DNA of 64,000 nucleotides from Eledone cirrhosa. Its lineage: Eukaryota. The notes below the pieces were generated by a model, which worked only from the letters and a program-made list of their open reading frames with translations, ran no database searches and was not told the DNA's origin. A program made the translations under genes and the position numbers. Below are positions 14,578-49,027 of the stretch, piece by piece (position 1 is the first letter of the stretch; each line of letters begins with the position of its first letter). The DNA lies in NCBI GenBank assembly GCA_964016885.1, contig OZ024750.1, forward strand, positions 10,726,001 through 10,790,000, in the 5' to 3' direction.

Positions 14578-14772
14578 AGGAACGAGTAGGACCCCGACGG
14601 TTGAGCTCAAGCCGTTTCGACGGCTAATTCTGAGTCCAGAATTAACCGTCGAAACGGCTTGAGCACAGCCGTCGGGGTCCTACTCTTTCCTATTACCCAC
14701 TCTACTATCCTAAGTATTGAGTACTTTGGTGCGTTATGGTCCATCTGGTTCCTTACCACATTTCCTTCGTTA
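14578..14772 (+). mobile_element. Family H fold-back element, copy 2
   Basis: Same hairpin plus tail, flanked by (TA)n. Confidence 0.85.
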
Positions 14773-14789
14773 CATATATATATATATAA

Positions 14790-15345
14790 ACATGCATAAA
14801 TAATACATACTTACATATATACATACATAGATATATACATATATTCATACATACATTTTTATTATCCCAAGCATACATATATACATACATACTTACATAT
14901 ATACTTAGATATATACATATAGTAATACGTACATATATGTTTATTATGGCAAGCATACATATATACATACATATATACATACATAGATATATAAATATAT
15001 TCATACATACATATATACATATATTTTTATTATGGCAAGCATACGTACATACATACATACATACACATATATATATATATACATAGATATACACATATAT
15101 TCATACATACATATATATTTATTATGGCAAGCATACATACATATATACATATCTCTCTCTATATATATACTTACATACATACATACATATATTTTTATTA
15201 TGGTAAGGATACATATATACATATCTATATATATATACTTACATATATTCATACATATATTTTTTATTATGGCAAGGATACATACATATATACATATCTA
15301 TATATAGATACTTACATATATACATACATATATTTTTATTATGGG
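14790..15345. repeat. Microsatellite-derived tandem repeat with TTTATTATGGCAAG anchors
   Basis: Anchor recurs about 7 times, separated by variable CATA/TA spacers. Confidence 0.75.
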
Positions 15346-15619
15346 AAATTGATAGAAAAATGATGTAGGAATGAATATTATATTTGGACTAAGACAATTT
15401 TGTTTAGAAAATTAGACGGAAATATATCTTTAGCCTAAAGCATGAATGCACTTATTACAACATACATGGGGAGTAAAACAGACTACCCTATAGTTAACAC
15501 CTTTTTCTATAACGAGCCAACCAGTGTATGCCACTACACAGTAGAATGAATTGTTAGAAATAGCAGTCAAATTTTCCTCATAAAGTAGCTTATCGAATGT
15601 TATTGTTTAATATTATTTT

Positions 15620-16066
15620 AAAGTACCAGTAATGCACTGTTAATTGCTGGCCTTGTGCCAAGTAGAAACAATTATTCTAGGCGGTGGATTGGCAGTATCG
15701 GTAGAGGGTCGGACGCCATGCTTTCCAGCATAGTTACGTCCCTTAACGATCGGAGTTCAAATCCCGCCGAGGTTGACTTTGCTTTTCATCCTTACGGGGT
15801 CGATAAAATAAAGTACCAGTAATGCACTGGGTAATTGTTGGCCTTGTGCCTAAAGTAGAAACAATTATTTTAGGGTTGGATTGGCAGTATCAGTAGAGGG
15901 TTGGACGCCATGCTTTGACACATAGAATTACGGCCCTTGCCATTCTGAGTTCAAATCCCGCCGAGGTTAACTTTGCCTTTCATCCTTACGAGGTCGATAA
16001 AATAAAGTACCAGTAATACACAGGGAAATTGCTGGCCTTGTGCCAAAAAGTAGAAACAATTATTCT
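15620..16066 (+). mobile_element. Tandem SINE A array (tail fragment plus two full copies)
   Basis: Three head-to-tail units, each ending in AGTAGAAACAATTATT. Confidence 0.9.
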
Positions 16067-16844
16067 AGATGTATCTTATTTGAATAGTCAAATTTTTCTC
16101 ATCGTGTAGCTTATCGACTTTTAAAAAATAAGGTTTTTGTTTAATGTTGTTGTAGGTGTATTTTATTTCAATGGATAAAATCAAATCCTGGACGTTCGCC
16201 ACTGGAATTTCTTTGGTTATATGTCTTAAAGGTAGTGGATTGGCGGAGTCGTTAGAGTGTTGGACATGCTTTACAGCTTAGAGTTACGGCCCTTAACTTT
16301 CTGAGGTTAGCTTTGCCTTTCATCCTATATAAGTCCGACTCCAGGCCAATAACAAATATGGATCTTGAGCCACTCATCTGCGAAACGTCCGTAACTGAGT
16401 CTAATCAATAAAAACCTCACTGTGAAACCTCGCTTTGTTCTTCTTAATATATATATATATATATGCATATATATAAATAAATAAATATTTATATATATAT
16501 ATATATATAAATAAATATTTATATATATATATATATATATATATATATATATATAAATAAATAAATATTTATATATATATAAATAAATAAATAAATAAAT
16601 ATATATATATATATATATATATAAATAAATAAATATTTATATATATATATATAAATAAATAAATATTTATATATATATATATAAATAAATAAATATTTAT
16701 ATTTATATATATAAATAAATAAATATTTATATTTATATATATATATATATATATATATATAAATAAATAAATATTTACATATATATATATATATATAAAT
16801 ATTTATTTATTTATATATATATGTTGAAAATTAATACAGATTTA

Positions 16845-17018
16845 GTAGCTTCAACGAACGTTTTTTTTTATGGAATATAGTCTAACAAATTATGCACCAA
16901 AGTCCTTGGACAGAAAAAAGTTACCAGCACCATCTGTCATTTTTTTCCGTCCATAGGCACTTATGCATAATTTGGTAGACTATTTTCCATAATAAAATAA
17001 AAAAATAAGTTAAAGCTT
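16845..17018. repeat. Imperfect inverted repeat (MITE-like or fold-back remnant)
   Basis: TATGGAATATAGTCTAACAAATTATGCA...GGACAGAAAAAA pairs with TTTTTTCCGTCC...TGCATAATTTGGTAGACTATTTTCCATA. Confidence 0.7.
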
Positions 17019-17031
17019 CCAACTCCAGGTT

Positions 17032-17218
17032 AATAATTGTTTCTACTTTTGGCACAAGGCCAGCAATTTCCCAGTGTATTACTGGTACTTTATTTTATCG
17101 ACCCCCGTAAGGATGAAAGGCAAAGTTAACCTCGGCGGGATTTGAACTCAGAATGGCAAGGGCCGTATATCTATGCGTCAAAGCATGGCGTCCGACCCTC
17201 TACCGATACTGCCAATTC
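17032..17218 (-). mobile_element. SINE A copy
   Basis: Near-identical to 2421-2608. Confidence 0.9.
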
Positions 17219-46224: not shown

Positions 46225-46945
46225 CATACATAACTAAATACACACATACACACATAGCTAAATGCACACATAGCTAAATACATACACACATAGCTAAATG
46301 CACACATAGCTACATACATACACACAGCTAAATGCACACATAGCTAAATACATACACACATAACTAAATGCACAAATAGCTACACACATACACACACAGC
46401 TAAATGCACACATAGCTACATACATACACACATAGCTAGATGCACACATAGCTACATACACACACATAGCTAAATGCACACATAGCTAAATACATACACA
46501 CATAGCTAAATGCACACATAGCTAAATACATACACACATAGCTAAATGCACACATAGCTACATACATACACACAGCTAAATGCACACATAGCTAAATACA
46601 TACACACATAACTAAATGCACACATAGCTAAATACATACACACACAGCTAAATGCACACATAGCTAAATACATACACACAGCGAAATGCACACATAGCTA
46701 CACACATACACACAGCTAAATGCACACATAGCTACATACATACACACAGCTAAATGCACACATAGCTACATACATACACACAGCGAAATGCACACATAGC
46801 TACACACATACACACAGCTAAATGCACACATAGCTAAATACATACACACATAGCTAAATGCACACATAGCTAAATACATACACACATAGCTAAATGCATA
46901 CATACACACATAGCTAAGTGCATACATACACACACAGCTAATTAC
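46225..46945. repeat. Composite 16/20-bp minisatellite
   Basis: Alternating CACACATAGCTAAATG and CACACATAGCTAAATACATA units. Confidence 0.9.
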
Positions 46946-48405
46946 ACACACATACATATATGTATTTATACATAAAGATTCAGACAAAAACGCGCACTTC
47001 TCTCCACAAATATACACATACATCAGGCATTAAGTTTACGCCTTCGGCGTTATTATATATCCATAAAGGAAATATGTATGGTGTGGTATAGACAGCTTTT
47101 GTATTTCTGACCAGTTGACTATCTAGACACATTGTCACTTAGGTAACGGGATATCAACCTCTAATTACTGGTATGTATGTATATATATTATATTTACTAT
47201 TTTTTCTATATATCAAATATATATGTTATTTAACTATAGTTATGTATGAATGTTTTATATGTATGTACATGATTTATGTATGTATGTATGTATGTATGTA
47301 TGTATGTATGTATGTATGTATGTATGTATGTATGTATGTATGTATGTATGTATGTATGCATGCATGTATATATGTATATATATATATATATATATACATA
47401 CATGTACACAGACACATATACATACATATATATATATATATATATATATATATATATATATATATACATGTGAGTATATATATATATATATATATATATA
47501 CTCACATGTAAATATGTGTATAATTATTTCGATATATTTTCTATATATATATTTATATATTTTATTTTTATACTGGTATGTTTAAGCATATATATATATA
47601 TATATATATATATATATATATATACATATATATATACACATACATATATATATATATGCACACACATACACGTACACACACACACACAACATATATATAT
47701 GTGTGTGTGTTTCAATATACGTTATATAAATACCCTTTATCATCTTGTTCTCACACACAACCACAATCACAGACACGACACACACACACACACGCGCGCG
47801 CGCACACACACACGCACACACATATCGATGACTGGACCTCCGTCGGATTCGACGATGAAGGTTCCAGTTGTTCGCTCAATTGAACAACTTGCTAATGAAA
47901 TTAACAAGAAGGTGTCCTAGCACTCCACTGACACGTGTACTCTGAACATAATTCGATTTTCCTCTACACAATTTCATTCAAAAAACAAAGATCGAACTGA
48001 AGTTTTGATAATTGACACATGCGCAATATGCAATGCAGTGGGATCGAACTGTTGATTGATCTAATGATTGCTAAACAAACTTATTGATTATCGGGCCATG
48101 CTGTGTCCAAATACACTCATTCCCTCACCTCACCTCCTCCATACCATCACACATTCTTTTATTTGTCTTGTACTCTTCTACTTGGTTCAATCCGCAGACT
48201 GTGGCCCAGCTGAGGCACCAACTTTAGTCGATTATATCGATCCTTATATTTATTTTTTTTAAAGTCTGGTTTTTATTGTATCGATCTAATTGTTACCAAC
48301 TCACTAAAGTACGGGATGTAATCACTGACTGACAGACAGACAGACAGACAGACAACCCCCCCCCCCCACACACATATATATATATATATATATATATATA
48401 TATAT

Positions 48406-48598
48406 AGGAACGAGTAGGACCCCGACGGCTGAGGTCAAGCCGTTTAGACGGCTAATTCAGTCCAGAATTAGCCGTCGAAACGGCTTGAGCTCAGCCGTCG
48501 GGGGTGCTACTCGTTCCTATTACCCACTCTACTACCCTAAGTATTGAGTACTTTGGTGCGTTATGGTCCATCTGGTTCCTTACCACATTTCCTTCGTT
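48406..48598 (+). mobile_element. Family H fold-back element, copy 8
   Basis: Hairpin plus tail inside (TA)n. Confidence 0.85.
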
Positions 48599-48727
48599 AT
48601 ATATATATATATATATATATATATATATACGCGGGCTTCTGAAACTTTAATAGAGGTCACTTGCCAAAGGTGCCACACAGCGATATATATATACATATAT
48701 AATATAATATAATATAATATAGAAATG

Positions 48728-48776
48728 GCTTCTACAGGACTAGAACTGTTTCATTCGAAGGAAATCATCAGGAAGC
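48728..48776 (-). ncRNA. Type I hammerhead ribozyme, complete core (family J)
   Basis: Minus strand reads GCTTC-CTGATGA-T-TTC-CTTC-GAA-T-GAAAC-AG-TTCTAGTC-CT-GTA^GAAGC. Confidence 0.8.
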
Positions 48777-48778
48777 GA

Positions 48779-48827
48779 CTTCCTGATGATTTCTCCGGAA
48801 TTAAACAGTTCTAGTTCTGCAGAAGCC
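48779..48827 (+). ncRNA. Mutated hammerhead copy (family J, inverted partner)
   Basis: CTTC-CTGATGA...TAAAC...CTGCA-GAAGCC. GAAA is changed to TAAA and GTA to GCA, so it is predicted inactive. Confidence 0.65.
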
Positions 48828-48873
48828 TTTCTATATTCAATATATATATATATATATATATATATATATATAA

Positions 48874-49027
48874 AACGAAGGAGATGTGGTAAGGAACCAG
48901 ATGGACCATAACGCACCAGAGTACTCAATACTTAGGGTAGTAGAGTGGGTAATAGGAAATTCTAATTTAGTCCAGAAATAGCCGTAGAAACGGCTTGAGC
49001 TCTGCCGTCGGGGTCATACTATTTCCT
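48874..49027 (-). mobile_element. Family H fold-back element, copy 9 (one arm deleted)
   Basis: Tail plus loop plus short arm; the tail-proximal arm is missing. Confidence 0.8.

Follow-up and report, generated by a model that had tools for sequence, protein, structure and literature searches.

The DNA analysed here is a 64,000-nt stretch of the Eledone cirrhosa contig OZ024750.1 (positions 10,726,001 to 10,790,000; henceforth the window), an AT-rich and microsatellite-rich piece of eukaryotic DNA, whose open reading frame (ORF) listing shows no long coding frame outside simple repeats. A BLAST comparison of the window against itself recovered ten copies of a short repeat, here termed family H, which is thus densely represented within 64 kb. 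Its parts are a short inverted arm, a variable centre, a long arm and a tail of 77-80 nt, and in nine of the ten copies (155-229 bp) the layout is (TA)n, short arm, centre, long arm, tail, (TA)n. Two alignable arms are seen in seven copies, with two more being partial, while the tail is present in nine and on one arm only. TA alternation flanks all ten copies at their ends, and they are all dispersed and head-to-head, with five of them directly adjoining elements of other families (of the K, P30, P60 and P18 kind described below) within common (TA)n tracts. We retain the copy numbering of an earlier note on this DNA; copies 1 (7.4 kb) and 10 (53.1 kb) lie outside the interval 14,578-49,027 that it quoted. 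The arms form a stable predicted hairpin: that of copy 8 has an energy of -69.8 kcal/mol (z -14.3), with none of 200 shuffles being equally good. Searches of prokaryotic collections (GTDB bacterial and archaeal genomes, plasmids and phages) returned no matches to family H.

Anatomy and variation of family H

Both ends of the elements are fixed. The short arm ends within one base of the same point in nine of the ten copies, reading TTCCTAT in copies 2, 4, 6, 8 and 9 and TCATAT in copies 1, 3, 7 and 10; the common stop of the short arm described in the earlier note therefore holds for all but copy 5, where it lies 4 nt earlier. The outer end is fixed as well, hence the narrow range of tail lengths. 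At the short-arm end the sequence of the long arm overlaps with (TA)n by 3 nt in family H and by 5, 6, 2 and 3 nt in families K, P30, P60 and P18, respectively. Compared with random junctions, this TA overlap yields a p of 0.05 for H alone and of approximately 0.003 for the five families combined (Fisher), which are not fully independent as the tails of four of the five are related. The TAT microhomology proposed earlier is thus borne out to the extent that the overlap exceeds chance, but is not clean in copies 1 and 3, where the long arm has CC opposite the CA of the short arm and the homology ends one base before TAT. Moreover, its interpretation as the point at which fold-back synthesis is resolved is not the only one available, since the overlap fits priming by a nicked target equally well.

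We compared the arms over a core of 54-56 nt. Within a copy they mismatch at 22 of 376 sites (5.9%), as opposed to 17.0% between short arms, 17.3% between long arms and 17.2% between short and long arms of different copies. Only 8 of 5040 pairings of arms are as good as the true one overall; however, this becomes 8 of 36 when the pairings are kept inside subfamilies. A tree of the 17 arms in the window separates subfamily B (copies 1, 5, 6 and 10) from the rest with 98/97 support and unites copies 3 and 9 (94/93), with no grouping by side, the last being the outcome that the earlier note had anticipated; in a tree of the tails the A copies are united too (99/97). Hence, the two arms of any one copy share a template lineage, and neither side follows an evolutionary path of its own. 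The earlier note had seen the right pattern but overstated the co-variation at the level of individual copies. The variants it gave for copy 4 are found on both arms, as is CAGCTAGAT in copies 1, 6 and 10. Those of copy 3 are also present on both arms, but are not private as the short arm of copy 9 carries them as well, and CGGCTAATT, while on both arms in copies 4 and 8, is on only one arm in copy 2, the long arm of which has AATTAACCG instead. Copy 4 is the only one with clear both-arm variants against its nearest relatives, copies 2 and 8, and holds the single strictly private both-arm allele in the core; as its tail holds an allele in common with subfamily B, a separate source element explains these variants. 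Being mostly a subfamily-level phenomenon, the co-variation does not show that one arm is re-copied from the other at each insertion. Single-arm substitutions in copies 2, 4 and 8 (8/324) are not rarer than tail substitutions (2/231; Fisher p 0.21), and there is accordingly no sign of continuing homogenisation: in this small sample the arms look identical at birth and have drifted since, with no sign of continued conversion.

The centres differ in all seven two-armed copies, just as had been noted of the loops, with 14-45 nt between anchors. When the five A-type centres are compared mutually, they resolve into one template strand, a small natural hairpin with the loop AGTCCA. Counting back from TAG, the short and long sides keep 9 and 13 nt, respectively, in copy 2, 13 and 9 nt in copy 3, 20 and 13 nt in copy 4, and 7 and 20 nt in copy 8, while copy 9 keeps 20 nt on the short side and none on the long side; stop points at 9, 13 and 20 recur. 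The short side reaches less far than the long side in copies 2 and 8, whereas in the remaining three of the five (copies 3, 4 and 9) the short arm has template sequence that is absent on the long-arm side. A single fold-back from the long-arm complementary DNA (cDNA) cannot yield these three copies, so that the view of the short arm as a simple copy of the long arm fails for them unless the centre was later rearranged. In copy 9 the short arm abuts the tail almost directly, with nearly all of the long arm absent; the upstream strand of its stem, which is not complementary to the arm of the same copy, hence represents template sequence. The centre of copy 3 is the reverse complement of the copy 2 loop plus one T, making the two mirror images of each other. 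The centre of copy 8 is closed via a 7-nt self-complementary stem, an exact fold-back, and copy 1 shows a 3-nt loop and a 45-nt centre with its own hairpin, while the junctions of copies 2, 3 and 4 display pairing of only 0-1 nt. The short arm of copy 6 has an 8-nt deletion.

Hammerhead motifs and a bulged tail hairpin

The long arm of family H contains a motif corresponding to the 3' half of a type I hammerhead, with CGAA, a stem III of 5-6 bp bearing a quasi-palindromic loop, a GTC triplet and a G-rich stem I strand. It lies in the sense orientation, running into the tail, and arises in 61 of 20,000 shuffled arms. All H copies break off ahead of the 5' hammerhead core, which is included in families K and P18; the centres of copies 1 and 5 contain a sequence close to the missing core, which was rejected as no stem I strand comes before it. 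Families K, P30, P60 and P18 (Table 1) have the same short-arm/long-arm layout as H, and in P18 one arm ends in (TA)n while the other continues. A descriptor for the whole type I hammerhead, which was written after some of the motifs were seen but on the canonical core, detects seven complete motifs in the neighbouring families against a mean of 0.04 in 100 block shuffles, with six of them lying no more than 50 nt upstream of (TA)n.

Similar sequences lie elsewhere in the window. A further hammerhead-bearing 3' end in (TA)n is found at 39830-40437 (-); it is about 410 bp long, and its 5' part recurs as an inverted copy of 81 bp, the inverted arm ending at an internal A/AT-rich site and a microsatellite filling the centre. 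More hammerhead-like 3' ends running into (TA)n are located at 30702-30920 (+), 5640-5793 (+) and 10460-10592 (+), with the copies at 5.7 kb and 10.5 kb being 81% alike and having Hydra-like short stem III words. Beside (TA)n at 5836-5960, 23126-23181 and 23329-23396 is a small family with a CGAAAC stem resembling the hammerhead 3' half.

The second recurrent feature is a bulged hairpin in the tail, comprised of ACTC, an inner stem-loop of 3-4 bp, a 2-nt bulge (TT or TC) and GAGT. It is present in six of the nine H tails and in families K, P30 and P60, at 43-61 nt from (TA)n. A descriptor for it gives ten matches, all in such tails, against a mean of 0.44 in 200 shuffles, a ratio inflated by the derivation of the descriptor from the same sequences and by six of the ten matches being H copies. 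The inner stems vary between families with the pairing kept, and in copy 6 a double change affects both sides of one outer pair while preserving it; conversely, a pair is broken in copies 1 and 3, and MAFFT does not align the K and P60 hairpins in register. By eye, among six published Hydra 3' ends (PMC8557442), Hydra-2_Amil fits strictly, Hydra-2_Ajap and Hydra-1_Crog are near and Hydra-1_Amil is weak, the strict fit having been seen before the descriptor was fixed and the two near ones after; Hydra-1_Obim and Hydra-1_Ajap, whose printed ends are shorter and stop too early, do not show the hairpin. None was seen by eye in three octopus Naiad ends in the same source. The literature searched, including by a search aimed at the hairpin, yielded no description of it. 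A tail-like stretch with the GTATTGAG word, single-copy in the window, lies at 49052-49110 (-) and ends at (TA)n beside copy 9.

Table 1. Positions of family H copies, neighbouring families and example motifs in the window
Feature	Position	Strand	Remarks
H copy 1 (subfamily B)	7291..7519	-	short arm 7464-7519, long arm 7369-7424, tail 7291-7368
H copy 2 (A1)	14576..14771	+	short arm 14576-14629, long arm 14640-14693, tail 14694-14771
H copy 3 (A2)	18611..18807	-	short arm 18754-18807, long arm 18689-18742, tail 18611-18688
H copy 4 (A1)	30395..30600	-	short arm 30547-30600, long arm 30472-30525, tail 30395-30471
H copy 5 (B)	30982..31177	+	short arm 30982-31033, diverged partial long arm, tail 31100-31177
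H copy 6 (B)	38350..38542	-	short arm 38495-38542, long arm 38429-38484, tail 38350-38428
H copy 7	41505..41565	+	short arm alone, without long arm or tail
H copy 8 (A1)	48404..48597	+	short arm 48404-48457, long arm 48466-48520, tail 48521-48597
H copy 9 (A2)	48875..49029	-	short arm 48976-49029, tail 48875-48951
H copy 10 (B)	53021..53225	-	short arm 53170-53225, long arm 53101-53156, tail 53021-53100
Hammerhead 3' half (type I), example in copy 8	48476..48506	+	inside long arm; stem III of 6 bp
Bulged tail hairpin, example in copy 8	48526..48549	+	ACTC, inner 3-4 bp stem-loop, 2-nt bulge, GAGT
Family P18	18268..18550	.	inverted pair, complete hammerhead motif in each arm
Family P30	30088..30375	-	inverted arms, hammerhead-like 3' half, tail of about 100 nt with bulged hairpin
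K-like copy	31222..31338	-	short inverted arm, short long arm, tail with bulged hairpin
Family K	48720..48840	.	inverted pair, arms head-to-head, one with a complete hammerhead motif and one with its degenerate mirror
Family K	53238..53365	-	inverted arm with complete hammerhead motif and H-like tail; almost no long arm
Family P60	59975..60234	-	short arm with complete hammerhead motif, short long arm, tail with bulged hairpin

Origin and mode of insertion

Penelope-like elements (PLEs) are described as inserting at (TA)n and as carrying a 5'-truncated copy in inverted orientation along with a tail on one side only (Craig et al., 2021; PMC8557442). Hammerheads have also been described in their terminal repeats, with a palindromic stem III and pairs on opposite strands (PMC4209133). 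Given the shared anatomy and motifs, we regard it as very likely that family H is of PLE origin, an element class that the earlier note did not recognize. It probably represents the extreme 3' end, i.e., the pseudo-long terminal repeat (pseudo-LTR) plus tail, of a PLE, with the (TA)n-targeting Hydra clade as the probable source, or a short non-autonomous RNA moved by such an element. As the copies are only 155-229 bp long and the frames scanned with Pfam gave no reverse transcriptase or GIY-YIG match, we do not file it as an autonomous PLE: as no PLE coding sequence was found, it is most likely 'derived from, and works like' a PLE. Two other classes were considered and rejected. Family H is not a miniature inverted-repeat transposable element (MITE) or other terminal inverted repeat transposon, since it has no inverted repeat at both termini and the long arm lies 77-80 nt from the end. 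Nor is it a non-LTR retrozyme, as its copies are dispersed and head-to-head and lack a complete hammerhead motif.

How PLEs build an inverted pseudo-LTR with a tail is a question posed in both PMC8557442 and PMC11167929. In the latter study, purified PLE protein was shown to nick the two strands of the target and to extend each of them; its synthesis begins at two positions on the RNA, which mark the limits of the tail, and ribozyme cleavage is not required (Frangieh et al., 2024; PMC11167929). We propose, with a probability of roughly 55%, that the best explanation overall for the H copies is that they are PLE 3' ends for which the two target strands prime cDNA at two fixed RNA sites, followed by head-to-head joining; if PLE origin is granted, double priming becomes the favoured mechanism with somewhat greater assurance. 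In detail, the PLE endonuclease would nick both strands of a (TA)n tract, with one nick priming cDNA at the outer RNA start site to give the tail and long arm, and the other priming at an inner start site, which lies some 78 nt upstream and has a TAT able to pair with the target, to give the short arm. Both cDNAs would stop early, 7-27 nt upstream of TAG, in the structured hammerhead stem II region and might then be joined head-to-head by a template jump, by end joining, or by either cDNA folding back and then annealing to its partner. Template jumping and the double copying of one RNA are properties of non-LTR reverse transcriptases. A single source RNA, copied into both arms, would explain their co-variation. 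Double priming would account for the fixed ends, the subfamily-matched arms, the two-way asymmetry of the centres and the copies nearly without a long arm (copy 9 and the K element at 53.3 kb). The anatomy, the fixed ends, the asymmetric centres and the motif content are direct observations, whereas descent from a PLE, an RNA intermediate, double priming and the manner of joining are inferred.

Several observations weigh against this proposal. CTGANGA, the 5' hammerhead half, occurs in no H copy, and Rfam reports no hammerhead in four focused scans of the motif regions, nor among the best 150 of 545 matches for the whole window, which are hairpin and microsatellite noise. Pfam finds no reverse transcriptase, GIY-YIG or transposase in the 133 of 211 candidate frames scanned, a set from which the 61 shortest and 17 low-complexity frames were left out. 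The H motifs find no relevant DNA match in the PLE supplement of PMC8557442, and the tail, at 77-80 nt, is about twice the 30-40 nt in print. Alignments between the tails of H and its neighbours are weak (in the best of eight comparisons, 10 of 2000 shuffles; that with P30 is not significant). The two start sites of the enzyme studied in vitro are non-homologous to the target, in contrast to the enriched TA overlap of 2-6 nt seen here. Finally, while the mirror-image centres of copies 2 and 3 fit a fold-back or jump from either cDNA, later inversion of the loop also explains them.

The strongest of the alternatives is the fold-back model of the earlier note in a completed form: the PLE 3' end would be reverse-transcribed once, the cDNA folding near hammerhead stem II, copying to TAT and joining the other target end, with the palindrome tips later deleted, inverted or an arm lost in the host genome. 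Palindrome centres are indeed unstable, and the exact fold-back in copy 8, the mirror loops of copies 2 and 3, the 3-nt loop of copy 1 and the TA overlap at the short-arm end all fit such a course. However, it requires a second event in three of the five A-type copies, and also in copy 9 and the K element at 53.3 kb; the upstream stem strand of copy 9 is template sequence rather than the complement of its arm; and the pairing at the copy 2, 3 and 4 junctions amounts to only 0-1 nt. For the inverted junctions of PLEs, self-priming has been put forward (Arkhipova et al., 2013; PMC3846280), but two fixed start sites are what was demonstrated in vitro (PMC11167929). The mechanism of the earlier note is thus partly in print, as are the two start sites, and does not fit all the centres; we consider its completed form, with later changes at the centres, unlikely.

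Distinctly less plausible is a fixed palindromic non-autonomous element, akin to a short interspersed nuclear element (SINE) or a MITE, that is copied whole, the arms at its source locus being occasionally homogenised by template switching or conversion and the centres decaying after insertion. Such whole-unit copying would be consistent with the subfamily-level co-variation (8 of 36), the two fixed ends and the similar lengths, but does not sit well with the different centres in seven of seven copies, the lack of depletion of single-arm substitutions, or the several unrelated families that have the same layout with different overlap lengths. Helitron and Helentron derivatives have short asymmetric inverted repeats, a 3' hairpin and a T-rich target. 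A DNA-based (TA)n-targeting element of this type, or a rolling-hairpin one with flip/flop tips, in which the hammerhead half is a matter of chance, is nevertheless highly improbable, because the flip/flop-like loops of copies 2 and 3, the asymmetric inverted repeat and the Rfam results are countered by the complete hammerhead motifs in neighbours of the same anatomy, the tail hairpin common to these neighbours and published Hydra ends, and the want of a terminal inverted repeat at both ends. The H arms, of about 55 nt, meet head-to-head at a variable centre, and no Rep/helicase match was found in the frames scanned with Pfam.

Returning to double priming, we tentatively entertain a broader possibility, in which the tail hairpin (RCTC, inner stem-loop, 2-nt bulge, GAGY) might be a conserved, undescribed cis element of the Hydra clade, one through which the protein is positioned and the inner start site defined; H might then be a non-autonomous RNA of about 150 nt that has shed the ribozyme core and kept the hairpin, and together with its neighbours constitute a very large natural record of PLE two-strand priming. 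If so, each insertion would comprise two cDNAs that were begun at fixed sites separated by about 78 nt and then joined at stop points that recur. The hairpin is also a candidate for the RNA element that the PLE protein recognises and offers a way to class short 'unknown' repeats as PLE ends. Going by ten copies in 64 kb, such junctions may number many thousands across the genome; they are short and easy to align, and can distinguish double priming from fold-back without bench work. The main value of family H lies in this testable record of how PLEs may insert and in the candidate tail element.

The window also contains other repeats. One, of about 170 bp, is found at 15690-15860 and some 20 other places (23 BLAST pieces, often in tandem) and may, going by its resemblance, be one of the cephalopod tRNA-derived SINEs. 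Two related fragments at 27260-27870 (-) and 23822-24176 (+) encode one C2H2-like finger below the Pfam cut-off, which we take to recall the C-terminus of RTE-type long interspersed nuclear elements. A MITE-like sequence, single-copy in the window, with terminal inverted repeats of about 50 bp and TA at both ends lies at 28700-28919, and two short inverted repeats at 16870-16990 and 36763-36802. Microsatellite-built duplications at 12560-12990 and 52400-52650 form near-perfect palindromes, e.g., of (CT)n(TA)n(AG)n units, and yield the top spurious Rfam miRNA matches. Minisatellite arrays, with units by eye of about 45-50 bp and 14-34 bp, are located at 42800-43700 and 46200-46940, and 13437-13636 is an assembly gap of 200 N.

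Comparison with known elements

In all likelihood, family H adds a new family to a structure class that is itself known, consisting of PLE 3' ends that are solo and head-to-head. A parallel outside the PLEs is furnished by the 5' inversions of L1 elements that arise by twin-priming, where the second target strand primes internally, the inversion points vary and the arms overlap little. Copy 9 and the K element at 53.3 kb look like such products, whereas family H in general differs in having a fixed point and about 55 nt usually copied twice. The non-LTR retrozymes (bioRxiv 10.64898/2026.07.22.740005) are like H in being short, non-coding, hammerhead-related and PLE-derived, but are tandem head-to-tail units with complete hammerheads as opposed to head-to-head arrangements with a half motif.

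Among PLEs proper, the inverted pseudo-LTRs of Adineta vaga Penelope elements (Arkhipova et al., 2013) are likewise head-to-head, with a palindromic junction and a tail on one arm; they are, however, low-copy, attached to ORFs and associated with target-site duplications, while H is solo, dense and in (TA)n. Poseidon from Anolis, as studied in vitro (Frangieh et al., 2024), may be likened to H in that both strands are nicked and extended, two reverse transcription start sites delimit the tail, the target is AT-rich and hammerhead cleavage is unneeded. Its start sites are 30-40 nt apart as against about 78 nt in H, and the main text of that paper does not model inverted junctions. The Naiad PLEs (PMC8557442) share the (TA)n target, inverted copies and tail with H, and by eye the octopus Naiad 3' ends have the GTCGAAAC word and a last 25 nt loosely similar to H; as described there, though, Naiads are without canonical hammerheads, which the neighbours of H with the same anatomy possess. 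The (TA)n preference, being common to Hydra and Naiad, is not diagnostic of the Hydra clade. Family H differs from Hydra elements in that it lacks an ORF and has just the 3' half of a hammerhead, and also in its 77-80 nt tail, in a stem III (5-6 bp plus a 7-9 nt loop) longer than in the tabulated Hydra motifs and in showing no motif match to the listed consensus sequences. Nevertheless, it has in common with them the (TA)n target, the inverted 5'-truncated copy and the one-sided tail, and its hammerhead half motif lies, as does the hammerhead in Hydra elements, about 50-110 nt from the 3' end (Craig et al., 2021).

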